NCBI GenBank assembly: GCA_035510355.1
Contig: DATKHF010000001.1
Coordinates: 3,661 to 67,660 of the forward strand
DNA length: 64,000 nt
Source of the DNA: Candidatus Saccharimonadales bacterium
GTDB lineage: Bacteria > Patescibacteriota > Saccharimonadia > Saccharimonadales > UBA4665
Direction of reading: 5' to 3'
Below the pieces are notes generated by a model that saw nothing but the letters and a program-made list of their open reading frames with translations, made no database searches and was not told the DNA's origin. Position numbers and translations under genes: made by a program. Below are positions 1 to 64,000 of the stretch, in pieces (position 1 is the first letter of the stretch; the number at the start of each line of letters is the position of its first letter).

Positions 1-90
1 CATCGTATTTTTGGTCGTATAATAAATTCGCTCACCAGTTTCTTCACTGACGAGACCAATGATCTTTCGCTTATCACCTTTTTTTGCCAT
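1..90 (-). CDS. rpmG: 50S ribosomal protein L33, N-terminal part only (gene runs off left edge)
   Basis: Own translation of minus strand from ATG at 90-88: MAKKGDKRKIIGLVSEETGERIYYTTKNTM..., fits L33 core pattern G.R.Y.T.KN; absent from ORF track because truncated. Confidence 0.6.
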   Translation of the reverse strand, partial: MAKKGDKRKIIGLVSEETGERIYYTTKNTM

Positions 91-166
91 ATTGACGTTG
101 ATTGTATCAGATGTGGAGCAGTTTGTAAACTCATTAACAGGCTGTTGATACTAAAATAATGCTGCC

Positions 167-241
<75 letters not shown>

Positions 242-307
242 TTAAATTACTTGCCAATAGTAGCAAATACTCTCTGTTTTTGCTACACTTTAGAACTGTT
301 AGGCTAT

Positions 308-384
308 GCCGACGTAGCTCAGTTGGTCAGAGCGGCTGTTTTGTAAACAGCGGGCCGTGGGTTCGAATCCCTCCGTCGGCTCCA
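308..384 (+). tRNA. tRNA-Thr (anticodon UGU)
   Basis: GCCGACG-TA-GCTCAGTTGGTCAGAGC-G-GCTGT-TTTGTAA-ACAGC-GGGCC-GTGGGTTCGAATCCCTC-CGTCGGC-T-CCA; one U.U mismatch in T stem; encoded CCA. Confidence 0.85.
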
Positions 385-420
385 ACACATTAAATATAGA
401 TCTTTTAATGAAGTTAGCAT

Positions 421-505
421 GCAGGGATAGTGAAGTGGTTAAACACATCAGACTGTAAATCTGACGGCTCAGCCTTCGGGGGTTCGAATCCCTCTCCCTG
501 CACCA
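421..505 (+). tRNA. tRNA-Tyr (anticodon GUA), type II with long variable arm
   Basis: GCAGGGA-TA-GTGAAGTGGTTAAACAC-A-TCAGA-CTGTAAA-TCTGA-CGGCTCAGCCTTC-GGGGGTTCGAATCCCTC-TCCCTGC-A-CCA. Confidence 0.9.
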
Positions 506-568
506 CATATTTTACATCTGTTAAAATTGTTAGAGCATCCGGTACGTTAGAACTTTTAGGCTAGATCT

Positions 569-955
569 ATGATTTATATTGACTCAACGATACACCATGA
601 CTGGAATAGGAATTTTAATCCTAAACTATGCCAAGCTTTAGAAGACCTTGGTATTAGTTGCTATTTACCTCAGCGAGACACGAATCAGCAATCAGCACGA
701 CAGAGCATCTTCGATCAAAACCATAAAGCAATGGCAGAAGCGGATACTATATTGGCTGTTGCCGAAAATGAGTCTCCAAACTGGGGCGTAGAAATAGGTT
801 ATGCCAAGCCCTTCAAAAAACGAGTCATTATTTTAGCTCAAAAGGATCATCATATTCCAACTATGGCAGAGTTTCTTGCAGATGAGGTTTGTTTAGTCGA
901 CAATATTGAAAGCATTACAGACTATGCTAATAAACTTGCTGCAATGTTAAAATAG
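569..955 (+). CDS. Nucleoside 2-deoxyribosyltransferase-like protein (NDT/Rcl fold)
   Basis: 128 aa; ...AEADTILAVAENESPNWGVEIGYAKPFKKRVIIL... resembles the NDT-family D..(x)..E.G.A.. catalytic-Glu motif; family call from motif memory only. Confidence 0.5.
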   Translation: MIYIDSTIHHDWNRNFNPKLCQALEDLGISCYLPQRDTNQQSARQSIFDQNHKAMAEADTILAVAENESPNWGVEIGYAKPFKKRVIILAQKDHHIPTMAEFLADEVCLVDNIESITDYANKLAAMLK

Positions 956-986
956 TTCCGACTTTGTTAAGAACGCTGCACCAAAT
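955..986 (+). repeat. 32-nt cassette-end direct repeat, copy R1
   Basis: GTTCCGACTTTGTTAAGAACGCTGCACCAAAT; first base is last base of the upstream stop codon; 30/32 identical to R3. Confidence 0.85.
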
Positions 987-1100
987 TAGATAACAGAGAG
1001 GCTTCGGCAGATTGTAGAGCGCCAGTTGCGTTCAAGGACACGCCCACCTCTATACTTTTAGGTTCTAATCCTACAGCCTGTAAATTCTTGTATTCTACAG

Positions 1101-1129
1101 TTGACATAATTATTACTATTTGATATCCT
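1101..1129 (+). promoter_or_regulatory. Sigma70-like promoter for RelB/RelE-like pair
   Basis: TTGACA (1101-1106), 17 nt, TGaTATCCT (-10 at 1124-1129); only 6 nt before ATG 1136, suggesting a leaderless transcript. Confidence 0.5.
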
Positions 1130-1135
1130 TCATGT

Positions 1136-1438
1136 ATGAGTGATACATCTACCATACACGTACCATTAGAACCAACAATTCGTAAGAAGTTTACGACTAA
1201 GGCTAAAGAGCTGGGCTTTGATTCAGCACAAGCATACCTCCGGGTTATTATAAAAGCGGCGGTAGATGGTCGACGCATAGACCTTGATATTGATGAATGG
1301 GGACAACCTTCGCCCGAAGCAGCAGCTCGCTTGAATAAGTGGACGGCTGAGGCACTTAAAGCTTCTGAAGCTGGGGAACTACCTAGTTTTACTGACGCTA
1401 AGAGCATGATGGAATACCTCCAAAATGAAGCGCATTGA
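1136..1438 (+). CDS. Type II antitoxin (RelB/DinJ/ParD-like, putative)
   Basis: 100 aa; overlaps the downstream RelE-like toxin gene by 14 nt; small, N-terminal basic beta-strand/helix region typical of RHH antitoxins; assignment mainly by context. Confidence 0.55.
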   Translation: MSDTSTIHVPLEPTIRKKFTTKAKELGFDSAQAYLRVIIKAAVDGRRIDLDIDEWGQPSPEAAARLNKWTAEALKASEAGELPSFTDAKSMMEYLQNEAH

Positions 1439-1691
1439 GCTTCACCGCTCGTTTATCAAGAACTTCGCTAAACGCATAGCCAAAGATGAAAAGCTGGGTA
1501 TGCAATACGAGAAAAGAGTAGATATGTTCATAGGGGGACATCGTGATGCACCACTTTACGACCACTCTCTTACTGGCGATATGCTTGGTAGACGTGCTTT
1601 TTGGATCACAGGTGATATCCGAGTAATTTACATTGAGCTTGAAGATAAGATTCTCTTTATAGATGTAGGATCTCATAACCAGGTCTACTAA
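1425..1691 (+). CDS. Type II toxin, RelE/YafQ-family mRNA interferase
   Basis: 88 aa; ...DHSLTGDMLGRRAFWITGDIRVIYIELEDKILFIDVGSHNQVY matches the RelE/YafQ C-terminal pattern H.L.G...G.R...I..D.R.IY......G.H..VY. Confidence 0.7.
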   Translation: MKRIELHRSFIKNFAKRIAKDEKLGMQYEKRVDMFIGGHRDAPLYDHSLTGDMLGRRAFWITGDIRVIYIELEDKILFIDVGSHNQVY

Positions 1692-1888
1692 TATAAAAAA
1701 AGCTTTAGAACGTTGTTTCATCAAATAACCTTGATGTGAGCAGAGCATTAGTGGCATTATGTCGTCGATTGAGAAACCTAAACATTACTGTTCTCCTCAA
1801 CCCCTTTCACTGATACAATTCCATTGTTGTACGTAAACCCGAGCCTCTCTAATTTACTAGCCATAAGAAGTAAACAGGGGCAAAAGGT

Positions 1889-1920
1889 GTTCGAAGCCCG
1901 GGACACGCAACGCACCAAAT
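1889..1920 (+). repeat. 32-nt cassette-end direct repeat, divergent copy R2
   Basis: GTTCGAAGCCCGGGACACGCAACGCACCAAAT; same length, shares GTTC start and GCACCAAAT end with R1 (17/32 overall). Confidence 0.5.
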
Positions 1921-1963
1921 TGCTTATACTTGCATTTTATGTAATAACTGATTAAATGACTTG

Positions 1964-2236
1964 ATGAAACCTGAATTTGAAAAATACCGTGGTGAAAAAG
2001 GTGAAAAAAGACATCCAGTTAACGTGGCTGTGCCATTACCATTACGTGACTTGTTGGAGTTCGTTGCAACAGAAGAATCAGATTCATTTAGCGGTATCGT
2101 CATAGAGGGTCTTGGTCGGGTAATTGAGGATAGGCAAAGTGATCCTGAGTTTACTGTCCAATTCCTGGCTCATCTAGACGAACGGAGCCAAAGTATCGAA
2201 GAAGCTCGTCAAAGATTCTTAGGTACCGACCAATAA
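1964..2236 (+). CDS. Hypothetical protein (90 aa, acidic)
   Basis: ORF track 1961..2236 (TTG) but ATG at 1964 is preceded by TTGCAT(1930-1935)-17 nt-TAAATG(1953-1958)-5 nt; no recognisable domain. Confidence 0.5.
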   Translation: MKPEFEKYRGEKGEKRHPVNVAVPLPLRDLLEFVATEESDSFSGIVIEGLGRVIEDRQSDPEFTVQFLAHLDERSQSIEEARQRFLGTDQ

Positions 2237-2237
2237 A

Positions 2238-2269
2238 GTTCTGACTTTGTAAAGAACGCTGCACCAAAT
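2238..2269 (+). repeat. 32-nt cassette-end direct repeat, copy R3
   Basis: GTTCTGACTTTGTAAAGAACGCTGCACCAAAT; starts 2 nt after the stop codon at 2234-2236. Confidence 0.85.
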
Positions 2270-2273
2270 GCTG

Positions 2274-2302
2274 TTGAATTCGCACGCATATATTGCTACA
2301 AT
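2274..2302 (+). promoter_or_regulatory. Sigma70-like promoter for Phd/ParE pair
   Basis: TTGAAT (2274-2279), 17 nt, TACAAT (2297-2302); followed by GGAGGA Shine-Dalgarno before ATG 2324. Confidence 0.55.
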
Positions 2303-2323
2303 AGTTATTGGAGGAATATAATT

Positions 2324-2572
2324 ATGCCTAATATTTTACCTATCTCAGATTTACGTAACTATACGGAAGTCTTAAATAAAGTAGACGTAGATAAGCCGGT
2401 CTACCTCACGCGCAATGGTCGGGGTAGTTATGTAATCTCTAAGATAGACGACTATAATCATGAGAAAACAGTAGAAAACTTACTTAAAGAAATACAAAAA
2501 GGAGAGAAATCCCTAAAGGATAATGGCGTTCCTTTAGATCAGATCACAAAAAAATATAGTATAAGTTTATGA
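2324..2572 (+). CDS. Type II antitoxin, Phd/YefM family
   Basis: 82 aa; MPNILPISDLRNYTEVLNKVDVDKPVYLTRNGRGSYVISKIDDY... typical Phd/YefM N-terminus; 4-nt overlap with toxin gene. Confidence 0.8.
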   Translation: MPNILPISDLRNYTEVLNKVDVDKPVYLTRNGRGSYVISKIDDYNHEKTVENLLKEIQKGEKSLKDNGVPLDQITKKYSISL

Positions 2573-2874
2573 AAATTATATTTGCTCCTGTAGCAGAGCA
2601 AGATCTAGCCGATTTATTTAGCTATATTAGCAACGATTTAAGTAACCCAATTGCTGCACACAATATAGCCAATAAAATACTCCAGGTATCACAAAAGCTA
2701 TCAGACTTCCCAGGACTTGGTGCTGAGTTAAAAACGATAGACACTAGACTGGATAACTATAGGTATTTAATAGTAGATAACTACTTAATAATTTATAAGG
2801 TTATTGACCAGGAAGTTTATATACTGCGTATTCTATATGCTAGATCTGACTACGTTAAATTACTTGAAAAATGA
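2569..2874 (+). CDS. Type II toxin, ParE/RelE superfamily
   Basis: 101 aa; MKIIFAPVAEQDLADLFSYIS...YRYLIVDNYLIIYKVIDQEVYILRILYARSDY typical ParE layout; ATGA-coupled to Phd antitoxin. Confidence 0.75.
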   Translation: MKIIFAPVAEQDLADLFSYISNDLSNPIAAHNIANKILQVSQKLSDFPGLGAELKTIDTRLDNYRYLIVDNYLIIYKVIDQEVYILRILYARSDYVKLLEK

Positions 2875-2882
2875 CTAAACAG

Positions 2883-2914
2883 GTTCTGACTTTGTTAAGA
2901 ATGCTGCACCACAC
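2883..2914 (+). repeat. 32-nt cassette-end direct repeat, copy R4
   Basis: GTTCTGACTTTGTTAAGAATGCTGCACCACAC; its CTGCACCACA is identical to the 3' acceptor end plus flank of tRNA-Tyr (496-508 region). Confidence 0.85.
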
Positions 2915-2916
2915 TT

Positions 2917-3489
2917 ATGCTTAAAGTAATAATATTTGACTGTTTTGGGGTTATATATCCACAGGCTTCCGGAGTCTACCTTGATAAACGTAAAGAATTA
3001 TTCCAAAACCATACCGAAGAAATAGGCGAACTCAACTTGAGGATAGATTTAGGTGAGATAAGTCGGGCAGAGTATTTCGTTGGGCTAGAAAAGGTTACCG
3101 GTGTATCTGCGAAAGAAATTCAAGACGAAGTAGATAGGCAGCTTCGAGTAGACCAAGGCCTAATAGATGTAATCAAGAAACTTAAAGCAAAATATAAAAT
3201 AGGAATGCTGTCCAACGCTGGCAAAGAAGAGATTGATATTATATACCGCGATAAGATCGACAGCTTGTTCGATGCTTTAGCTGTATCTTATGAAGTTAAA
3301 TCGGTTAAACCGAACGCAGAAATATTTCTGGTCTGCTTAGATAGGCTGGGAGTTAAAGCCGAAGAAGCATTATTGGTTGATGACAGCATGGTGAATATAA
3401 AGGCAGCTCAAGATCTAGGTCTTCAAACTCTTTATTATCCTAAGTTTGGTAATATGCCAAAGGATCTAACTGAACTAGCGAGGTTCTAA
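2917..3489 (+). CDS. HAD-superfamily hydrolase
   Basis: 190 aa; N-terminal motif I VIIFDCFGVIY, later SNAGK and LVDDS (motif IV-like); second Asp of DxD replaced (D-C-F), as in some HAD subfamilies. Confidence 0.7.
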   Translation: MLKVIIFDCFGVIYPQASGVYLDKRKELFQNHTEEIGELNLRIDLGEISRAEYFVGLEKVTGVSAKEIQDEVDRQLRVDQGLIDVIKKLKAKYKIGMLSNAGKEEIDIIYRDKIDSLFDALAVSYEVKSVKPNAEIFLVCLDRLGVKAEEALLVDDSMVNIKAAQDLGLQTLYYPKFGNMPKDLTELARF

Positions 3490-3514
3490 CCATGTAGATT
3501 ACGCTGCCTAAGCA
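3483..3514 (+). repeat. 32-nt cassette-end direct repeat, degenerate copy R5 at MFS breakpoint
   Basis: GTTCTAACCATGTAGATTACGCTGCCTAAGCA; 20/32 to R3; overlaps HAD stop codon (3487-3489) and the first codons of the MFS remnant. Confidence 0.55.
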
Positions 3515-3752
3515 CTTTTCTGGTCTTGCGTCTGGTATTTTAAATACATCACAGCAAGTCGGGGGTGCAATCGGTCTTGCTGTACTATTGGTTGTTGCTT
3601 ATTCGACTATTAAATCTGACACTATTGCACATAGCCTCCCCGCAACCGCTCAAGTCCACGGTTATCAGAACGCCCTAGAAATTGGTGTTGGTCTAGCACT
3701 GGCTGGAGCTGTCGTTGTCGCATTAGTAGCAGGATATGTAGTACAATTCTAA
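3498..3752 (+). pseudogene. 3' remnant of an MFS (DHA2/EmrB-QacA-like) transporter gene
   Basis: Own translation, frame open from 3498 with no start: ITLPKHFSGLASGILNTSQQVGGAIGLAVLLVVAYS...VHGYQNALEIGVGLALAGAVVVALVAGYVVQF*; aligns to C-terminus of the MFS gene at 63362-64000 (HLSGLASGLINTAQQIGGSLGLAIL...VHGF). Confidence 0.7.
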
Positions 3753-3809
3753 TGAGCAAGTAACAGAGGCTTCACGATCAAAGATAAGATTAAAGCTAAA
3801 CTCCCTCTA

Positions 3810-4763
3810 ATGTGGACAGAGGCGCTGAGAGCGCTGCTTTGTATGGTACCGATGCTCTTTGCCAGCAGTATGAGCAAGACAACATATCTCGTAGCTCTTG
3901 GGCAAGGTGGTTTCTTTTATAGCGCATTATTTTTACCGAAAAAAATAAGCGCTCGGCTTGTCATGGGGATGTTAATACTAGGCCTCGGCTTAGGTTTTTA
4001 TCTCATAGGCGGGACAGTAGCACCAAATCCTTTATTAGCTGTATTCTTTACTTTTCTCGTGTGTCTCCTGCTCAGTTTTTTAAGTGGGTGGAAGATTGGT
4101 GGACCAATCGCCCTTACTCTCGTAATGATCTATACGGCTGGGCTCAATACTGGATCACCTGAAAGAGCATCAAAGAATTTTATAGTATTTGCTCTGGTTC
4201 TAACGTGGTGCGCTGCAATTTCTGTACTGCCTCTCTGGAAGCCTGTCCCGCCTCCGCCCGTAAATCCAGATATACCCAATGAGGAGCTCGCCGAACAAGG
4301 CTTTAGGCTAGGGATCGGTGCAGCTATCGCCTTAGCAATTTCCTATATTGCGGGATTTGCAAAACTTGGCTGGGCTCCCAGTGCCGTAGGCAACGTTGTA
4401 CGTTATGATGAGAAACTATCAAAGCTGAGAGCTTGGGCTCGATTTGCAGGCACTATTGGCGGTGCACTCTTAGCGTCCATCGCGCTAGCATTTATATCGA
4501 GCGTTACAGTAATTGTATGGATAGGTGCAATTTTTGCAATTATAAATGGATTATTTAAAAAGACTAAAGTCGGAATGATTCCTCTATTCTATACAGCAAC
4601 AATTTTATTACTATATAGTGCCAATGATATCTCAGCCGGAAAAACGAATATTATTCATCGGATATTCTATAACATTATCGGCATAACTGTTGGTATGTTA
4701 GTAGTTATCTATCCATTCCCACATATAATGAAAAAAATAAATCCCAAAGCAAGAGCAGCCTAG
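3810..4763 (+). CDS. Polytopic membrane protein (possibly FUSC/ArAE-type), function unknown
   Basis: 317 aa, many hydrophobic segments, PPPPV linker mid-protein; family guess is weak. Confidence 0.5.
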   Translation: MWTEALRALLCMVPMLFASSMSKTTYLVALGQGGFFYSALFLPKKISARLVMGMLILGLGLGFYLIGGTVAPNPLLAVFFTFLVCLLLSFLSGWKIGGPIALTLVMIYTAGLNTGSPERASKNFIVFALVLTWCAAISVLPLWKPVPPPPVNPDIPNEELAEQGFRLGIGAAIALAISYIAGFAKLGWAPSAVGNVVRYDEKLSKLRAWARFAGTIGGALLASIALAFISSVTVIVWIGAIFAIINGLFKKTKVGMIPLFYTATILLLYSANDISAGKTNIIHRIFYNIIGITVGMLVVIYPFPHIMKKINPKARAA

Positions 4764-4835
4764 CCAATTACATTGCATAACTGATAGCTTTGTGAGACAG
4801 TATGATCAATAAATTTATAAGGATCGGGGTAAGGT

Positions 4836-5066
4836 ATGTGGTATTTATTAGGAGTAATTCTTTGGGTAATCGTGGCGTTTTGGCCAGCTATGGTCGCAAA
4901 ACGTAAGGGACACAGTTTTGGTCTATTTTTCATTCTCAGTTTAATCTTTTTCTTCTTGTCACTGATCCTAGCCTATGTTGTTAGCGATCGGACTATGACA
5001 GCAAAGGATAAAGCTGACGATAGGGCTGCGGAAAAAGCGTTAGACCGAGAAGAGAATAGCATTTAA
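4836..5066 (+). CDS. Small membrane protein, unknown function
   Basis: 76 aa; two predicted TM segments then charged tail; GGGGTAAGG SD-like sequence upstream. Confidence 0.5.
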   Translation: MWYLLGVILWVIVAFWPAMVAKRKGHSFGLFFILSLIFFFLSLILAYVVSDRTMTAKDKADDRAAEKALDREENSI

Positions 5067-5387
5067 GCGGAGTGGTGAGAAGAGTAAAAGTTAGTATAAG
5101 CGCTAAAGTATCCATACTGTTGGATAGCGGAAAAGAATACATATAGGCTTACGTGGAGCATATTGCGTTGCTTAGCTTTGACCTAAGTTTTAATACCTAC
5201 TAATCTCTCATTCTTACGTTCCCGCTTCTATATATGGTTCATTGGTAATTACCTGCCGATCACTAGTCGGCCTAAACTCGCGGGCATAGCCTTGGTCGTA
5301 TCTGTTTTTTCTCGCTGTTTTAATGCTTAGTATGACCGAAGCCGTTTTCTCACTGACCCTGGAATGTTGTAAAGCAACAACCTAATC

Positions 5388-5411
5388 AAAAAACTACGAG
5401 CATCCTCGTCG
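5388..5411 (-). terminator. Intrinsic terminator after TPR gene (end of trpS-holB operon)
   Basis: Minus strand: ACGAG-GATG-CTCGT-AG-TTTTTT immediately after stop at 5416-5418. Confidence 0.5.
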
Positions 5412-5415
5412 TGCG

Positions 5416-6075
5416 TTAGACAATTACACGTTTGGGACGAAGAATACGTTTACGAGTGCCAGTTTTTTTGTCTGCAATCAATTTTTTCAGTTTGCTTTCA
5501 AGCACATCGGCATCGGCTGCCCTATCGTTATCTCGGTAGGCCTTAATTAGCAGTGTATACGTCTCTTTATTAGGCTCTAGCCTAAGTGCTTCCTCAAGTG
5601 ACTGGAACATCATCTTTTCATTGCCTAGCTTCTCCTGGACTTTAGCATAGGCCACATGACGTGCCGCTAAGTTATCCTCAAGCTTCAGAGCTTGCTCGAA
5701 AGCAATACCGGCTTTATCGTAGTTTTCGGTCTCGTAATAAATTAACCCGAGGTTATGTAAGCTGGAAGGCGTAGACTCAATACTACTCGCGATCTCAAAA
5801 CAATCAATTGCGTCTCGGTATTCCTTTTGCTTTGCATATAGGATGCCCAATCGATTATAGGCCGCTGCATTACGTTCATCAATTTTAAGAATGGTGAGTA
5901 ACGCTTTTTCAGCCCTAAAAAATCGGTTTTCGCGCATACCCTGATGAGCGATATCCCAGAGTTTACCAAGACGATCACTAAGTTTTCTTGGTACACCGGC
6001 GAATTCATCATCACGTAAAACTGTATGGTAATAGGTCAGCCCTGCGAAGCCGGCGATAATAAGTAGTTCGAACAC
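5416..6075 (-). CDS. TPR-repeat protein with N-terminal membrane anchor
   Basis: 219 aa; MFELLIIAGFAGLTYY hydrophobic N-terminus; repeated A..Y..LG..Y......A...F..AL TPR signatures. Confidence 0.7.
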   Translation of the reverse strand: MFELLIIAGFAGLTYYHTVLRDDEFAGVPRKLSDRLGKLWDIAHQGMRENRFFRAEKALLTILKIDERNAAAYNRLGILYAKQKEYRDAIDCFEIASSIESTPSSLHNLGLIYYETENYDKAGIAFEQALKLEDNLAARHVAYAKVQEKLGNEKMMFQSLEEALRLEPNKETYTLLIKAYRDNDRAADADVLESKLKKLIADKKTGTRKRILRPKRVIV

Positions 6076-6093
6076 GAATCTTATTATATCAGA

Positions 6094-6963
6094 CTATATG
6101 TGCAACAGTAGATTGAGTACCACTAATTTAGTCTGTGCGTTAACCAGCAGAGCATTTTGGGCATCATGGGCAGCAGTAAGGACTTTTTGCCAACGACGAA
6201 CAGTTTTATTATCGTGAGCTGCTGCAGCCCTCGCAATAGACACCTCCGCCATGCGCAGCAACGCCTGGGTGAGCTCAATAGCTTTCGTTCTGTCTTTAGC
6301 GAGACTATCAAGACGAGCTAGGCGGTCAAAGGTTGATAGTTGTAGCAGCTCACGAGCTTGATTAACGGCTTCGACTAAGGGATGGCTCTTTTCGTCATTA
6401 AGTAGCGCGTAAAGCAGCCCCGGTAAATTACCTCCCAGCACATATACCTGTTCAAAATTTTTGGGCTCAGCGTCGGCTAATTTCTCTAGCTGGGCTCGGC
6501 CGGGCGCCCGAATAGTTATTGTCTGTATACGCGATAAGATGGTCGGTAATAATTGCCGCGGGTTAGAAAACGTTAATATTATAACGGTGTCAGTCGGTGG
6601 TTCTTCTAAGCTCTTGAGTAAAGCATTCTGAGCTTCTAGAGTCATGGCGTCAGCATGTTCTATGATGACGAACCGTCGTAGCGTTGTAGTGCCAGTCGTT
6701 TTTAATTTTAAAAAATCGGTAAGTCCTCGAATTTGATCAATCGTAAGATTATTGCCCTCAGGTTCAATAAGCTTAAAATACGGATACTGCTCTAGCTTTG
6801 TAATTGGTTGTTGAGTGATTTCACTCACTAGCCATTTAGCAAGCGTCGTTTTACCGATACCGCCTGGACCAACCAACCCAAGAGCATGCGACGGGTTTTG
6901 GACAACAGATTCTAGCTCAAGACGGCCAACTTTATGCATTATTGGCTGATTCTGGACGCTCAC
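6094..6963 (-). CDS. holB: DNA polymerase III delta-prime subunit
   Basis: 289 aa; Walker-A-like GPGGIGKTTLA, FVIIEHAD, SRIQTITI (SRC-motif equivalent). Confidence 0.75.
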   Translation of the reverse strand: MSVQNQPIMHKVGRLELESVVQNPSHALGLVGPGGIGKTTLAKWLVSEITQQPITKLEQYPYFKLIEPEGNNLTIDQIRGLTDFLKLKTTGTTTLRRFVIIEHADAMTLEAQNALLKSLEEPPTDTVIILTFSNPRQLLPTILSRIQTITIRAPGRAQLEKLADAEPKNFEQVYVLGGNLPGLLYALLNDEKSHPLVEAVNQARELLQLSTFDRLARLDSLAKDRTKAIELTQALLRMAEVSIARAAAAHDNKTVRRWQKVLTAAHDAQNALLVNAQTKLVVLNLLLHI

Positions 6964-7832
6964 GACTGTTGACCTCTCATGAATTCACTAAAGGCTAGTG
7001 GAAGTGGTGCATAAAAGATCTTACGCTCTTTGTTTGGTAACGTTATCTCAAGGCTCATAGCATGTAGGTATAATCGCTTTGCCGACTTACCTTCATAAAA
7101 GGTGTCGCCAACTATTGGATGACCAATGTGTTTGAGGTGAACACGTAACTGATGAGTTCGGCCAGTCTGCGGACGTAGCTCTAGGAGGCTATGCACACCA
7201 TCTGACTCTAGAACCTTATAATGGGTCAGAGCGGGCTTGCCATTAGCACCAGTTCGAAACGTGGCTGGTGCTTTAGGATTACGTTCGATGGGCATATCAA
7301 TAATGGCTTCTGAGGGCTGTAGCTCGCCCTCGACGATTGCTGCATAGATTTTTTTAACCTTACGTTGGCTGAACTGTTTTTGGAGCCAGGCTAAGGTTGC
7401 CTGATTTTTCGCACCGATCATTACACCAGAAGTAGCTCGATCCAGTCGATGGACTATACCAGCACGCTCACCGTCTAGATCAGTTGTCCTACCGCTGAGC
7501 CAGGTCGCAACCGTGGCCTCAGGATTAAACGCGCCCTTGCTATGAGTCAGAAGGCCAAGCGGTTTATTAATAACCACGCAGTCGTCATCTTCATAAAGAA
7601 TTGGCAAGTCAATGTCAGGTATTTCTGTCAGTTCATTAACATCGTAATCAAGTGTTATTACTTCACCAACTTTTAATTTATAACTAGAACGGGCCGGTTT
7701 ACCGTTAACGAGAATTTTTTCTAGATCACACAGTTTCTGAACAGATGCTCGGCTGATTTCTGGAACCATTTGTGCCATACATACGTCTAAACGCGTTTTA
7801 GACCATTCTACCGTTATCTTAAATTGCTTCAT
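6960..7832 (-). CDS. rluD: RluA/RluD-family pseudouridine synthase with S4 domain
   Basis: 290 aa; catalytic HRLDRATSGV motif, KKIYAAIVEG, THQLRVHL. Confidence 0.8.
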   Translation of the reverse strand: MKQFKITVEWSKTRLDVCMAQMVPEISRASVQKLCDLEKILVNGKPARSSYKLKVGEVITLDYDVNELTEIPDIDLPILYEDDDCVVINKPLGLLTHSKGAFNPEATVATWLSGRTTDLDGERAGIVHRLDRATSGVMIGAKNQATLAWLQKQFSQRKVKKIYAAIVEGELQPSEAIIDMPIERNPKAPATFRTGANGKPALTHYKVLESDGVHSLLELRPQTGRTHQLRVHLKHIGHPIVGDTFYEGKSAKRLYLHAMSLEITLPNKERKIFYAPLPLAFSEFMRGQQS

Positions 7833-8869
7833 GCCGTTTTAGGGCGCAAGCCGACCGCTATTTGGACTTTTAGCAGTGTGGCATCAGCAATTTCATTCAT
7901 AGCTGCCTCATCCGACTCTAGTTTAGCCATCAATGCTTGTTCGTCAATGTGTGCTACGGCCGACTGGAATTCCGTTAAGAAGCTCTTTACGGCGTCTGCA
8001 ACGGCGCTTTTTAGCTCGTCATAACCTGTCTTACTTTCCCAGACCTTATTCACTTCGGTCTGAGGTGTCTGACTGAGGAGTGACAATATTTGTAATAAGT
8101 TGGTGATACCTGGCTGCTTCCCAAAATCAAAATGTATACTAGCCAGACTATCAGTGGTCGCGCTCATAATTTTTTTATCAGCTTCATCGGGATTATCGCC
8201 AAGAAAGATTATTCCTCGATCACTAGCATCGCTTTTACTCATTTTTTTGCTGGGATCAACGAGATCCTTAATGCGTAAACCCTGGTCTTTGCCAAAAAAT
8301 TCATGTTGTTGTTTGACTGGTTTTGGCACGGAAAGCAATTCGCCAAACTGATTATTGAGTCGCACAGCGATATCGCGGGTATATTCTAGGTGCTGTGTCT
8401 GATCATCACCAACCGGAACATACATGGCTCCGTATAAGAGAATGTCGGCTGCCATAAGGGCAGGATAGTTAAATAGCCCGACACTGATTCGGTCGTCACT
8501 AAGCTTCGCGGACTTGTCTTTAAACTGAGTCATCCGGCTCATCTCACCAAAACCCGTAAAACAATCAAGAATCCAAGCCAGTTCGCTATGGGCGCGGACA
8601 AAACTCTGTCGGTAAATATGAATATCTACCTGATCAAGCGGCAAACCTGCAGCTACAAATAGCTTGAGAGTATGAAGAGTTTGCTCATGCAGCTTAGAGT
8701 GGTCAGTCGGAGTCGTAAAGCTGTGTAGATCAGGGACAAAGAGGTTAATTTGATAGTCTCCGGCTCGGTGCATTGCCATATCTACAATGGGCAATAGCGC
8801 TCCAAAGAGATTGCCAATATGCAAATCATTATTGGCCCTGAGCCCCGTCAAGATTACTGGTTTAGCCAT
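7829..8869 (-). CDS. trpS: Tryptophan--tRNA ligase
   Basis: 346 aa; class I signatures LHIGNLFGA (HIGH) and KMSKS; GDDQTQHLE motif typical of TrpRS. Confidence 0.9.
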   Translation of the reverse strand: MAKPVILTGLRANNDLHIGNLFGALLPIVDMAMHRAGDYQINLFVPDLHSFTTPTDHSKLHEQTLHTLKLFVAAGLPLDQVDIHIYRQSFVRAHSELAWILDCFTGFGEMSRMTQFKDKSAKLSDDRISVGLFNYPALMAADILLYGAMYVPVGDDQTQHLEYTRDIAVRLNNQFGELLSVPKPVKQQHEFFGKDQGLRIKDLVDPSKKMSKSDASDRGIIFLGDNPDEADKKIMSATTDSLASIHFDFGKQPGITNLLQILSLLSQTPQTEVNKVWESKTGYDELKSAVADAVKSFLTEFQSAVAHIDEQALMAKLESDEAAMNEIADATLLKVQIAVGLRPKTA

Positions 8870-9303: not shown

Positions 9304-9711
9304 TTAGCGTTTAGTAAACTGACGTTGCTTACGAGCACCTTTAAGGCCAAACTTCTTACGTTCTTTCTCACGTGAGTCACGACCGAGCAAATCAGCGCGA
9401 CGTAAGGTCGACTTGAAGTCCTCGTTCATTGCTACGAGCGCTTTAGCAATCCCAAGACGAATTGCCTCGGCTTGACCATCGTGGCCGCCCCCAGAAACCT
9501 TAACCGTAATTGCAAATTTGTTCTCCTGAGAAAGTGCTGTAAATGGTTGCTGGAGTTTACCGAGAAGGTATTTGCTATCAGCAAAATACGTTTCAGCAGG
9601 CTGATCATTAATCGTGATGCTGCCTTTGCCGTTCATGAGTCGCACGCGAGCCGTGGCGCTCTTACGACGTCCTAGACCATAAAAATAGTTCTTCGTAGTT
9701 GATGTTGCCAT
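9304..9711 (-). CDS. rpsI: 30S ribosomal protein S9
   Basis: 135 aa; YGLGRRKSATARV..., C-terminal ...RKQRQFTKR. Confidence 0.95.
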   Translation of the reverse strand: MATSTTKNYFYGLGRRKSATARVRLMNGKGSITINDQPAETYFADSKYLLGKLQQPFTALSQENKFAITVKVSGGGHDGQAEAIRLGIAKALVAMNEDFKSTLRRADLLGRDSREKERKKFGLKGARKQRQFTKR

Positions 9712-11570: not shown

Positions 11571-12191
11571 TTAACGCGAGTAATACTCAACGATTAATTG
11601 CTCATTAATGTCTGGTTCCGCATCCTCGCGGGTCGGCAAACCAGTTACTTCGATTTCAAACTTCTTGCGATTGACTTTTAGCCAAGCCGGAATTTCTGCC
11701 GGTGCTGGGCTAACATCATCAATCTGGGTAAAGTACCCGGTTTTATGACTGTGTGGTCGAGCTACCAATGTATCACCGGCTGCCAAACGAATTGATGGGA
11801 TATCAACGCGTCGACCATTTAGCATAAAATGACCGTGGGTTACTAACTGACGAGCAGCTCGACGAGACGGGGCTAGACCTGCACGATAGACAACATTATC
11901 AGCTCGTTGCTCTAAGAGTCGTAGCAAGACTTCACCAGACTGGCCTTGAGATCGGGAAGCCTCTTTCATGAGGTTACTAAACTGCTTTTCAAGCAGCCCG
12001 TACAAACGTTTAACCTTCTGTTTTTCGCGGAGCTGTAAGCTGTACTGACTAGCTTTGTTACGGCTATTTCGACCATTGGTTTGCTGACCAGGGGGTGTCG
12101 TACGCTTTGCCAATGCCTTGTGAGCCTTTGGGTGCAGAGCATAGCCTTCGCGGCGGCTCATTTTTACAATAGATTGGGTATCTCGTGCCAC
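11571..12191 (-). CDS. rpsD: 30S ribosomal protein S4
   Basis: 206 aa; S4 N-terminal and S4 RNA-binding domain (RLD.VVYR.GLA.SR..ARQLV.HGH). Confidence 0.95.
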   Translation of the reverse strand: MARDTQSIVKMSRREGYALHPKAHKALAKRTTPPGQQTNGRNSRNKASQYSLQLREKQKVKRLYGLLEKQFSNLMKEASRSQGQSGEVLLRLLEQRADNVVYRAGLAPSRRAARQLVTHGHFMLNGRRVDIPSIRLAAGDTLVARPHSHKTGYFTQIDDVSPAPAEIPAWLKVNRKKFEIEVTGLPTREDAEPDINEQLIVEYYSR

Positions 12192-46909: not shown

Positions 46910-47110
46910 TACTTACACATATTCTCAAAGCATGAGCGTGTAAGCGTCGATTGATAAAAATGGTGGACTTGAAGCACTTTCTTTCGAACACCTTTTAGGC
47001 TGGTTAGACTGTTTATTGAAATTTTTATATATAATATAAGTGGCAGATTACGTGGATGAGCCAAGTTGCTCATCGAGTCCAAAGTTTCTGCCTTTTTTAT
47101 ACTATGACAC

Positions 47111-47140
47111 TTGACTAGTTACACTATTGTAGTGTACACT
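47111..47140 (+). promoter_or_regulatory. Promoter with palindromic operator for VapBC-like pair
   Basis: TTGACT (47111-47116); perfect inverted repeat TACACTA-TTG-TAGTGTA at 47120-47136 overlapping the -10 region (TACACT 47135-47140). Confidence 0.45.
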
Positions 47141-47371
47141 ATGAACATTATGAAGAATATAACACTATCTGCCCCTGAAGAACTAATTGAAAAAGCTCGG
47201 AAAGAGGCGTATGCAAATGGTACTACTCTGAACCAGGAATTTCGTGAGTGGTTAGAGTCAAGAAACATGAGCGGCGAAGAACATGTGGCTCAATATAGAC
47301 AACTATTAAAAAAACTATCACATGTCAATGCAGGACGTAAGTTTACTCGTGATGAAATGAACGAACGATAA
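47141..47371 (+). CDS. Type II antitoxin (RHH/VapB-like, putative)
   Basis: About 76 aa from ATG 47141 (or 47150); ORF-track TTG start at 47111 coincides with the -35 box; precedes PIN toxin by 4 nt. Confidence 0.55.
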   Translation: MNIMKNITLSAPEELIEKARKEAYANGTTLNQEFREWLESRNMSGEEHVAQYRQLLKKLSHVNAGRKFTRDEMNER

Positions 47372-47375
47372 AGTT

Positions 47376-47804
47376 ATGACAAAACAGGATAAGGTTTTCT
47401 TTGATACTAACGTACTTGTTTATCAGTTTGATAAAACAGCACCAAGAAAGCAGCAACAAGCTATAGAACTGATCGAAAAATATATAGCAAACAAGCAGGC
47501 TGTCATAAGCTCACAAGTATTACAAGAGTTTATGAATGTCTCATTAAAGAAATTCGATACTAAATTATCGATAGATCAGTTAGAACTAGTCATGGATGAT
47601 CTACTAATACCGATGTGTCATCACTTTCCGGTTTTCGATTATTACAAGCGTGCACTTAGATTTTATTCATCAAATAGCATAAGTTTTTATGATGCTTTGA
47701 TCATACAAGCTGCTTTAGATTTAAATTGTAGAGTTCTTTATAGTGAAGATTTTCAGGATGGTCAGAAATTCGATGGACTGACTATAAAGAATCCTTTCTC
47801 GTGA
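47376..47804 (+). CDS. vapC: PIN-domain toxin (VapC family)
   Basis: 142 aa; N-terminal VFFDTNVLVY acidic PIN motif, later YDALI and SED acidic residues. Confidence 0.75.
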   Translation: MTKQDKVFFDTNVLVYQFDKTAPRKQQQAIELIEKYIANKQAVISSQVLQEFMNVSLKKFDTKLSIDQLELVMDDLLIPMCHHFPVFDYYKRALRFYSSNSISFYDALIIQAALDLNCRVLYSEDFQDGQKFDGLTIKNPFS

Positions 47805-47820
47805 TAATTAAAGTCCGTTC

Positions 47821-47905
47821 TGGTGGGGATGAAAGGACTTGAACCTTCACGCCTTGCGGCACATGCTCCTAAGGCATGCGTGTCTACCAATTCCACCACA
47901 TCCCC
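47821..47905 (-). tRNA. tRNA-Leu (anticodon UAG), type II
   Basis: Minus strand GGGGATG-T-GGTGGAATTGGTAGACAC-G-CATGC-CTTAGGA-GCATG-long variable arm-GAAGGTTCAAGTCCTTT-CATCCCC-A-CCA. Confidence 0.9.
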
Positions 47906-63361: not shown

Positions 63362-64000
63362 TTACAGAACAGTTGTTTCTGGAGGATGCTCAGCACCAGG
63401 ACTTTTTTGCTTGATAATTATCATGGCCAGTAAACTGGCGGTTATGGCAAAGCCAGTAGCAATATAGAAACCAACACGGAAGCCATGGACAGTTGCCGTT
63501 GCTACGACAGCTGGAGAATTAGAGTGCACGTGCTGCAGGTACCGAACCGTACTTGAGGCTACGAGACCAGTTAGAATTGCTAGACCAAGTGACCCACCTA
63601 TTTGCTGAGCGGTATTAATTAACCCTGAAGCTAAGCCGGATAAGTGGGCAGCTACACCACTGGTAGCGGCTACAAGTACGCTTACAAACGTGAAGCCAAG
63701 TCCAAAACCCATAACAATCATGCCGGGCATAATGTGCAAAAGATAACCACCTGACACCGAGATATGGCTTAGCATATACAAACCAATAGCGGTGAGTAAA
63801 GGTGCGAAGACCAGCAGCGGCTTATAGCCTAGACGCTTAATTAAACGCGGGGCATTCGTGGCAGCGATAGCAATTGCAATTGGGACGACTAAAAAACTGA
63901 GTCCTGTGCGCACTGGTGAATAGCCCAAAACATCTTGGAGGTATAACGAGCTAAAGAAAAACACCGAGAATAAGCTGGCGGCATTAAGTAGCTGAATAAC
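63362..64000 (-). CDS. MFS transporter (DHA2/EmrB-QacA-like), C-terminal part; gene continues past right edge
   Basis: Frame stays open to position 64000; TM-rich; LYLQDVLGYSPVRTGL motif; paralogous to remnant at 3498-3752. Confidence 0.8.
   Translation of the reverse strand, partial: VIQLLNAASLFSVFFFSSLYLQDVLGYSPVRTGLSFLVVPIAIAIAATNAPRLIKRLGYKPLLVFAPLLTAIGLYMLSHISVSGGYLLHIMPGMIVMGFGLGFTFVSVLVAATSGVAAHLSGLASGLINTAQQIGGSLGLAILTGLVASSTVRYLQHVHSNSPAVVATATVHGFRVGFYIATGFAITASLLAMIIIKQKSPGAEHPPETTVL

Follow-up and report, generated by a model that had tools for sequence, protein, structure and literature searches.

Integrons line up compact, co-oriented cassettes, mostly with a single open reading frame (ORF), whose recombination site overlaps or abuts the stop codon; entry is proximal to the platform, and the cassettes are very diverse, with many unknown proteins, GNATs and toxin-antitoxin pairs. 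The staphylococcal and enterococcal cassette chromosomes (SCC) of Firmicutes use the CcrAB large serine recombinases (LSRs) and insert at the 3' end of a conserved gene, rlmH. They form tandem composite arrays between direct repeats, in which recombinase-less units stand beside autonomous ones and are presumably moved in trans; the units measure kilobases to tens of kilobases, carry inverted repeats at both ends and are not single-gene cassettes. Phage serine integrases rarely have tRNA genes as their attB. Tycheposons of Prochlorococcus are found at tRNA genes, where later insertions displace older ones, and a minority of them use an LSR, 910 of 937 elements using tyrosine recombinases (Hackl et al., bioRxiv 10.1101/2020.12.28.424599). 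How does the locus described here compare with these systems? It lies in a 64-kb stretch of DNA, called the window throughout, from a Candidatus Saccharimonadales bacterium (GenBank assembly GCA_035510355.1, contig DATKHF010000001.1, positions 3,661 to 67,660), and consists of tandem one- or two-gene cassettes, each closed by a short repeat (R1 to R5), directly behind a tRNA-Tyr gene. An original prediction, made from the letters alone, had taken the repeats for att-like sites of a cassette-accreting system at this tRNA, an idea now supported by recurrence in relatives, exact boundaries and LSR elements on the same repeats. Our reading, to which we give a probability of roughly 70%, is that small DNA units were inserted site-specifically, time after time, at the 3' end of tRNA-Tyr, likely by an LSR, and that each repeat, an attP-derived arm plus a shared core, is what such an insertion left behind.

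R1 (955-983), R3 (2238-2266) and R4 (2883-2911) are copies of one 29-nt sequence, GTTCYGACTTTGTWAAGAAYGCTGCACCA, without a mismatch; over 32 nt their pairwise identities are the 28-30 that had been predicted. With up to three mismatches allowed this sequence has three matches only in the 64 kb, both strands included, and none in 100 shuffles. In a whole-window scan with the family profile R1, R3 and R4 score 41-46 bits, and strong copies are confined to 947-2917. Are there then five copies of one element, as first proposed? R1, R3 and R4 are, exactly; R5 (3474-3507) scores weakly (nhmmer with the family profile, 10.3 bits, E=0.03), shares the predicted 20/32 positions with R3, and is a degenerate copy merged with a fragment of a transporter gene of the major facilitator superfamily (MFS). 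R2 (1889-1917, plus strand, GTTC...CCA) does not belong with them. It is missed by the main-family profile, has conserved flanking sequence from about 1869 and finds its relatives in L015 (728 and 1120), L029 (10559) and at 46989-46961 of the window (labels L001-L057 denote the 57 fetched Saccharibacteria contigs or contexts compared with the window); R2 is a true member of a second, longer repeat family (family 2) and not a decayed copy. The tRNA-Tyr(GTA) gene that precedes the array lies at 421-505 on the plus strand (ARAGORN, Rfam), with its 3' end, CTGCACCA, at 498-505. That the repeat tail equals this 3' end had been noticed from the window, and across loci the tails do match the targeted tRNA: TCCGCACCA, CCCGCACCA, GCCCCACCA and (C)CTGCACCA each equal the 3' end of the tRNA in question. 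As part of the reading given above, and with the same confidence, 498-505 would be the chromosomal attB-type arm plus core at which cassettes insert.

An exact-pattern scan of one genome per species returned four Saccharibacteria metagenome-assembled genomes (MAGs) and a looser pattern 41 metagenome contigs, and the repeat is present in 45 Saccharibacteria contigs, genomes and metagenomes together. By profile scan the arrays have 1-12 co-oriented copies, with 12 repeats in 5.6 kb in L002. Of 47 sequences, 24 have the array directly behind tRNA-Thr(TGT)-tRNA-Tyr and in the same orientation; the others are fragments without upstream DNA, except for arrays at tRNA-Gly(TCC) (L036, L042, L038) and tRNA-Leu(TAG) (L025), platforms that end CCCGCACCA and GCGCACCA. 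Wherever upstream sequence exists, no repeat was found upstream of the tRNA or opposite to it in strand, and the upstream flanks encode rpmG, RpoA, SecY, TrpS, RluD, HolB or a TPR protein. Had the motif been dispersed genome-wide, it could have been a generic element; in the window it occurs only past tRNA-Tyr, with a family-2 copy past a tRNA-Leu, and it is tRNA-linked in the 45 contigs. The main consensus, extended to the left, reads A(-6) R N A(-3) N N GTTCYGACTTYGTNNANAACNCTGCACCA, with a variant ATTCTAACCTCGTTCATCACCCTGCACCA; 20 of the 29 repeat positions are at least 86% conserved. Family 2 has a longer consensus, AGTAAACnAGG...AAGGTGTTCSAAG...GACACG..CGCACCA. A viral contig collection scanned with the looser pattern gave no match, so that this collection offers no sign of an attP carried by phages. 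L015 holds an array that mixes family-2 and main-family repeats and has a transposase gene (rve, HTH_21) at its distal end, 2210-3163; this was rejected as the cassette enzyme, being an IS3-like insertion. L001 (Logan contig SRR8676597_1415) is an independent assembly of the window locus that stops shortly ahead of R4, within the ParE cassette. Short-read assemblies are probably broken up at the array by its repeats or by strain variation, and for this reason arrays are likely under-represented in MAGs.

Are the cassettes discrete units? An invariant locus had been named as a point against the cassette idea; in fact the genomes differ widely in gene content there, with breakpoints precisely at the repeat end ...GCACCA. 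One cassette of ~461 bp is the first after tRNA-Tyr in L033, the second in L043 and L024, and is also found in L012, with four different right neighbours. Its similarity opens right past CTGCACCA, be it that of the tRNA or of the preceding repeat, and closes at its own ...GCACCA. Likewise, the Phd/ParE cassette of the window (645 bp, 2267-2911) recurs at full length in L003 with 90.7% identity and other neighbours on both sides. An empty and an occupied site can also be compared: L042 has tRNA-Gly...GCACCA followed by TTGTAGACTT, and L038 has repeat...GCACCA followed by the same TTGTAGACTT. Full-length recurrence and exact edges together mean that the units are discrete and have their repeat at the 3' end; the point of exchange lies within the shared ...GCACCA. 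L003 (oriented) in fact holds two Phd/ParE cassettes, at 5501-6145 and 6497-7140, each ~90% identical to that of the window and together flanking a unit with a degenerate repeat. In L054 (reverse complement, 9642-9684) a tRNA-Tyr-type tail (GATGCTGCACCA; GCTGCACCA) closes a cassette with a YafQ toxin-antitoxin pair. This cassette stands in a tRNA-Gly(CCC) array, and therefore cassettes appear to move between tRNA sites.

Which enzyme could be responsible? The original prediction had placed the recombinase outside the window or considered it lost. It is indeed absent from the window and found at the same sites in relatives, where LSR genes lie in elements of 7-11 kb bounded by a tRNA 3' end and the same repeat. 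In L038, positions 1645-3339 encode a 565-aa protein with Resolvase (PF00239), Recombinase (PF07508) and Zn_ribbon_recom (PF13408) domains, which matches the RD-ZD region of the A118 integrase with E=4e-5. The LSRs of L038 and L042 (547-565 aa) lie directly at the junction and are transcribed towards it. The family is large (2660 homologues at E<=1e-20), and 11 further contexts were fetched through these homologues (L047-L057). In all 11 the LSR gene is convergent with a tRNA gene and faces its 3' end, and altogether the LSR adjoins the sites in 13 loci. The targets are tRNA-Tyr (L048, L057), tRNA-Gly(TCC) (L052), tRNA-Gly(CCC) (L053-L056) and, in L047 and L049-L051, a tRNA interrupted by a group I intron. 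For L047 the intron lies at 11633-11823 on the minus strand (Rfam RF00028, 73.6 bits) in a tRNA gene missed by ARAGORN. The 3' exon of this tRNA ends in GCCCCACCA, the tail of the repeats of that array. At the far end of the LSR elements, 7-11 kb away where in range, the same repeat family is found with 20-31 bits, the match being weaker (10 bits) in L051. L042 shows a complete unit of 8.6 kb: tRNA-Gly...CCCGCACCA, then the LSR gene on the minus strand and three further genes, then GTTCTGACTTCGTCTAAAACGGTGCACCA. Its cargo at 5090-8477, an AAA ATPase (phrog_3757) and a 753-aa protein (phrog_3964), is a pair conserved in phage collections. L048 carries a primase, and the autonomous elements are thus similar to integrative elements with replication genes of their own. 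Small cassettes follow downstream of the big LSR element in L047 and L054. In L038 (1182-1260, oriented), L042 (117-170), L048 and L057 the LSR ORF is still open where it reaches the att core and continues across it, so that its last codons (tail ...SLQWCTVLDEVRT) come from the complement of the repeat or of the tRNA; an integrated and a circular element would therefore encode different C-termini.

It seems reasonable to propose the following mechanism. Each unit would enter at the ...GCACCA of the tRNA, bringing its own gene or genes and its own right-end site of ~35 bp, and would push older units away from the tRNA; entry at the tRNA by units that carry a right-end site would therefore give the order tRNA, unit 1 with its repeat, unit 2 with its repeat, and so on. 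The likely enzyme would be the LSR family borne by the autonomous 7-11 kb elements with replication genes in related Saccharibacteria, and we infer that the small cassettes are moved by it as well. The attB arm would be formed by the T-loop and acceptor 3' strand of the tRNA and the attP arm by the repeat. Cassettes with one or two genes and no recombinase would be non-autonomous passengers, either miniatures mobilised in trans or decayed elements that recombination spread later. The whole array would store accessory genes in variable sets and owe its stability to its toxin-antitoxin cassettes.

Does the geometry of the sites fit a serine integrase? The attP reconstructed for L053 is CGTCTAAA-ACTCCGCACCAC-TTTAGACG, with a centre of 12 nt and inverted arms that match at 8 of 8 positions; the arms of L042 match at 11 of 13. 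The GTTC that had been seen to open both the repeat and the tRNA T-loop turns out to be part of GTTC(N)GA. On inspection of the sequences, the start of this motif precedes the CCA end by 29 nt in all repeats and by 24 nt in the tRNAs, where it belongs to the T-loop. In serine integrases the outer motif for the zinc-ribbon domain is 5 bp nearer the core in attB than in attP (PMC3783163). The shared GTTC is plausibly this binding motif, shifted by 5 bp between attP and attB arms, and the offset would then match that of serine integrases. The crossover dinucleotide would be GC or CA of TGCACCA.

Several points weigh against site-specific insertion by an LSR. Neither tblastn nor by-eye reading of ORFs found a recombinase gene in the 64-kb window. 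The complete array of L002, with its 12 repeats from tRNA-Tyr to a conserved TPR gene, has no LSR, so that action in trans must be assumed. The arm symmetry is centred at GC, and this dinucleotide, being palindromic, would leave the orientation undefined; a centre at CA of TG-CA-CCA agrees better with the half-site numbering of A118 integrase (Rutherford et al., PMC3783163) at the cost of arm symmetry. Canonical serine integrases need both half-sites, and the small cassettes lack the mirrored left half: a mirror-image second half-site (P') at their starts scored no better than at control positions. Canonical serine integrases also recombine attP with attB only, which makes re-insertion beside an occupied tRNA site non-standard, as is the excision of units between two attR-like sites.

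The missing P' half-site is also what one would expect if the small cassettes were decay products of full LSR elements, each inserted at the tRNA and then stripped by deletion of its recombinase and most of its genes. According to this alternative, array diversity would come from homologous recombination after natural DNA uptake, with conserved tRNA genes, repeats or shared cassettes as flanks, and no mini-cassette would ever have been moved by a recombinase. Decay does occur. L037 retains only LSR residues 378-564, beside tRNA-Tyr and in a unit still closed by a repeat, and is for this reason taken as an element caught in the process. About seven small cassettes, cassette 1 of the window among them, open like the left end of an LSR element (TTTTTGTATCTGTT), and differences in cassette order can be explained by insertion at the tRNA and deletion between direct repeats. 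Random deletion would not, however, be so regular as to leave most cassettes compact, with a single intact ORF that runs from 6-60 nt past the junction to the repeat. Nor would it place the left edge of LSR-free units exactly at ...GCACCA, as in cassette 1 of L043, a unit of 338 bp between tRNA-Tyr and a shared cassette, and homologous exchange at a single locus does not explain a tRNA-Tyr-type tail, GCTGCACCA, in the tRNA-Gly(CCC) array of L054. We consider decay and exchange as the full account unlikely. Compact form and exact left edges of LSR-free units suggest, as far as sequence comparison goes, that cassettes move as units, and L037 points to decay; movement in trans and decay with homologous recombination may both operate.

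Could a tyrosine recombinase be at work instead? If the system were a true integron relative, an IntI- or Xer-like enzyme would be encoded elsewhere, the repeats would be unusual folded attC sites and the tRNA end would stand in for attI. The architecture is integron-like, the cassettes being compact and co-oriented, and the repeats can form an imperfect 8-bp hairpin with an invariant bulged A, 83% paired over 74 repeats and with some covariation, which none of 500 shuffles reaches. This short hairpin itself has modest support, and attC-like folding was rejected: R1, R3 and R4 are unfolded on either strand (-1.1 to -2.4 kcal/mol, z from -0.7 to +1.3), the extended stem shows no covariation, and conservation is of sequence rather than structure. 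The absence of a fold and of RYYYAAC/GTTRRRY boxes bears out the original view that the sites are not canonical attC. The head of the array is tRNA-Thr/tRNA-Tyr, with no IntI, and no tyrosine recombinase appeared among the scanned proteins or the Pfam annotations of L047-L057, a search that did not take in every ORF of the 57 loci. With an LSR adjoining the sites in 13 loci and its C-terminal remnants at the junctions of L034, L036 and L037, an integron proper is very improbable. The original prediction had allowed for a tyrosine or a serine recombinase; the serine class is the likely one, not tyrosine. A classical tRNA island, with a tyrosine integrase and a displaced tRNA fragment, was rejected as well: 6-12 nt of the repeat equal the tRNA, and the scanned ORFs hold no such integrase.

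The repeats might also have their function in RNA, or be of a generic kind: terminators, REP-like elements, tRNA-like processing ends or sites of reverse-transcriptase capture at CCA. All units end in ...ACCA like a tRNA, with junctions exactly past CCA, and many cassettes, having no space for a promoter, may be read through from the tRNA promoter. Yet the repeats have no stable hairpin or T-run, and an Rfam search of window positions 1-6000 returned tRNAs only and no match for them. They are confined to tRNA-linked arrays rather than dispersed, their tail covaries with the target tRNA, a DNA recombinase is encoded at the junction, and no locus showed a reverse transcriptase. We give an RNA-level or generic origin very little weight. 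A tRNA-like minihelix (10-bp stem plus ACCA) was tried and rejected: it is good in a few copies, and over 74 copies its 66.6% pairing equals that of shuffles.

Insertion at the tRNA by an LSR can be taken one step further, into a serine-recombinase counterpart of the integron. Here the tRNA would be the capture site and possibly the promoter, and mini-circles of a single gene, with just one conserved half-site of attP type, would be captured and excised by an LSR supplied in trans. We put this forward tentatively and regard it as somewhat doubtful. If true, a platform for gene cassettes would have evolved independently in Saccharibacteria, whose genomes are very small, and its serine integrase would work on half-site substrates and re-use an occupied site.

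In the window itself, the rpmG gene (minus strand) comes first, followed by tRNA-Thr(GGT) (minus), tRNA-Thr(TGT) at 308-384 (plus) and tRNA-Tyr(GTA), all three tRNAs called by ARAGORN. Cassette 1 (506-983) has a leader (506-560), an ORF resembling nucleoside 2-deoxyribosyltransferase (NDT-like, 569-955) and R1, whose extended consensus starts at 949. Cassette 2a (984-1917) has a predicted promoter (1101-1129), a RelB-like antitoxin candidate without Pfam match (1136-1438), YafQ/RelE (1425-1691) and R2. Cassette 2b (1918-2266) begins with AATTGCTTATAC, as cassette starts typically do, and holds an orphan 91-aa ORF (1961-2236) and R3. Cassette 3 (2267-2911) has a promoter, TTGAAT-17-TACAAT, predicted by promoter scan at 2274-2302, then Phd (2324-2572), ParE (2569-2874) and R4. 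Cassette 4 (2912-3511) is a HAD hydrolase ORF (2917-3489), which begins 5 nt past R4 without a promoter of its own, closed by R5 (3483-3511; profile match 3474-3507). Pfam upholds the earlier labels NDT-like, YafQ/RelE, Phd, ParE and HAD. The positions of the stop codons are also as predicted: TAG at 953-955 overlaps R1, TAA at 2234-2236 lies 1 nt 5' of R3, TGA at 2872-2874 lies 8 nt 5' of R4 and TAA at 3487-3489 falls within R5; so is the gap of 197 nt (1692-1888) ahead of R2. Every cassette ORF is on the plus strand and the surrounding core genes on the minus strand, again as claimed, and the GC content of the array is 0.34-0.43 versus 0.44-0.48 for core genes further along.

The recognisable array ends distally at the junction of R5 with the MFS gene. 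Homology to an MFS transporter had been said to start at the last repeat, and translation does show a C-terminal fragment (3498-3752, plus strand) fused to the R5 tail, reading ...ITLPKHFSGLASGILNTSQQVGG... from about 3498, in a frame (ITLPKHFSGLASG...) that overlaps the last repeat bases; Pfam gave no match for this fragment. The junction, ACGCTGC followed by CTAAG, falls at a 7-nt overlap (ACGCTGC), which is why a secondary-site or microhomology event comes into question; this, or a deletion, is suggested by the way in which the final repeat runs into the interior of an MFS gene. A fuller MFS-like paralogue, judged by eye, lies at 63362-63964 and runs off the far end of the window.

What do the cassettes carry? 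When the arrays are cut after every ...CCA, 62 different complete cassettes result; they measure 248-5313 bp, with a median of 460 bp, and most have one ORF. The longest ORF runs in the direction of the tRNA in 57 of the 62. It usually starts 6-60 nt past the junction, and the last stop codon usually falls in the stretch from 25 nt ahead of the repeat to 7 nt into it. The 72 non-redundant proteins make up 63 families, most of them without a Pfam match; among the families are ParE, Phd, YafQ, TrpR-like, GNAT, LMW phosphatase/ArsC-like, SDR, VanX-like, Fic, CsbD and cupin, and known defence genes are few. The majority of cassettes were found in one array only. No recombinase was found in the scanned small cassettes, long cassettes and upstream flanks; the long cassettes of L034, L005 and L037 carry Fic, VanX-like, DapF-like and TrpR-like genes, and the flanks are housekeeping. 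Signals for expression are mixed: a promoter scan predicted those at 1101-1129 and 2274-2302 in the window, 11 of 94 cassettes have a terminator at the start, and many have room for neither.

Several unrelated cassettes open with a conserved leader of ~50 nt (..TTTTnnATCTGTT...TAGAGCATYAGGTACGTTAGAAC), seen at 506-560 in the window, at 564-620 and 3071-3120 in L002, and at L015 1755, L031 461, L041 1970 and L043 886. Its first part resembles the left end of LSR elements past the terminator (TTTTTGTATCTGTT), a likeness found at 6 of 94 cassette starts versus 1 of 128 control windows. The window leader was also tried as relic LSR coding sequence and rejected, since the homology to the LSR 3' coding region is weak and only the TTTTTGTATCTGTT-like part convincing. 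A 20-mer related to the leader, ACTTTAGAACTGTTAGGCTA (287-306), lies just 5' of tRNA-Thr(TGT). The leader may be a left-end recombination module or a promoter. In addition, the 8-mer TTATGCTT or its complement AAGCATAA is 5-10-fold enriched in the first 20 nt of cassettes, in either orientation, for instance at 1918-1935 and 2912-2930 of the window, in the contexts AACCATAAGCA or CCTTATGCTTAA.

The window holds a second site, with a single cassette, at tRNA-Leu(TAG) (46961-47905, minus strand). The tRNA (47905-47821) ends CCCCACCA, and a repeat assigned by comparison to family 2, GTTCGAAAG...GTCCACCA (also written AAGGTGTTCGAAAG...GTCCACCA; 46989-46961, minus strand), ends 860 bp past it. Between them, on the strand opposite the tRNA, run a VapB-like (47111-47371) and a PIN/VapC-like gene (47376-47804), both assigned by eye. 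The pair has no homologue among the fetched loci; L025 has the same layout at its tRNA-Leu(TAG).

Why would this matter? The genomes of Saccharibacteria and other members of the Candidate Phyla Radiation (CPR) are very reduced, and little is known of their gene gain and loss. If widespread, swappable single-gene cassettes anchored at tRNAs would be a main route of accessory-gene flux in Saccharibacteria, and the array a defined locus for reading strain-level variation in metagenomes. Literature on Saccharibacteria, Patescibacteria or CPR with integrons, cassettes, genomic islands or serine recombinases yielded no description of such arrays, and a survey paper on inoviruses does not address them. 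The idea of a cassette array, so far tied to the tyrosine recombinases of integrons, would extend to LSRs, and the system points to integrases for which the T-arm and acceptor end of a tRNA serve as attB and the second half-site may vary. Saccharibacteria can now be cultured and transformed, and such enzymes and sites may be useful for their genetics and for integrase engineering.

The systems named at the outset can now be set beside the locus. The phage serine integrases of A118/LI, phiC31 and Bxb1 have the same domain set (Resolvase, Recombinase and zinc ribbon), homology extending to A118, and their attP is an imperfect inverted repeat, as in the autonomous elements here; unlike the arrays, they integrate once per site, require both half-sites and build no arrays. 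Tycheposons share the position at tRNA genes, the displacement of older insertions by later ones, the leftover att repeats and the degenerate remnants without integrase, and their autonomous members combine integration and replication modules (primases) with cargo, to which the primase of L048 is a parallel. Their att repeats, however, are partial copies of the tRNA, whereas here 6-12 nt come from the tRNA and the rest is a conserved, element-specific arm, and they are kilobase-scale elements, in contrast to the mostly 250-1000 bp, single-ORF, co-oriented units with an LSR in a host from the CPR. In relatives, the recombinase sits at the att edge as expected of an LSR element, which is not the case within the window. 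The likeness to SCC lies in the LSR, the insertion at a 3' end, the tandem arrays with direct repeats and the recombinase-less units. With integrons the locus shares the compact, mostly single-ORF, co-oriented cassettes, the site at the stop codon, the platform-proximal entry and the diverse content; it differs in having no IntI or folded attC, sites conserved in sequence, a tRNA 3' end as platform, a serine recombinase as candidate enzyme and some cassettes with promoters or starting terminators of their own. The original prediction had offered an integron-like system or serial tRNA-targeted insertion. On this comparison, each half describes a different aspect: the architecture resembles that of integrons, and the mechanism would be closest to serial integration at tRNA genes, as in tycheposons, and to the LSR-borne cassette chromosomes of the SCC type.

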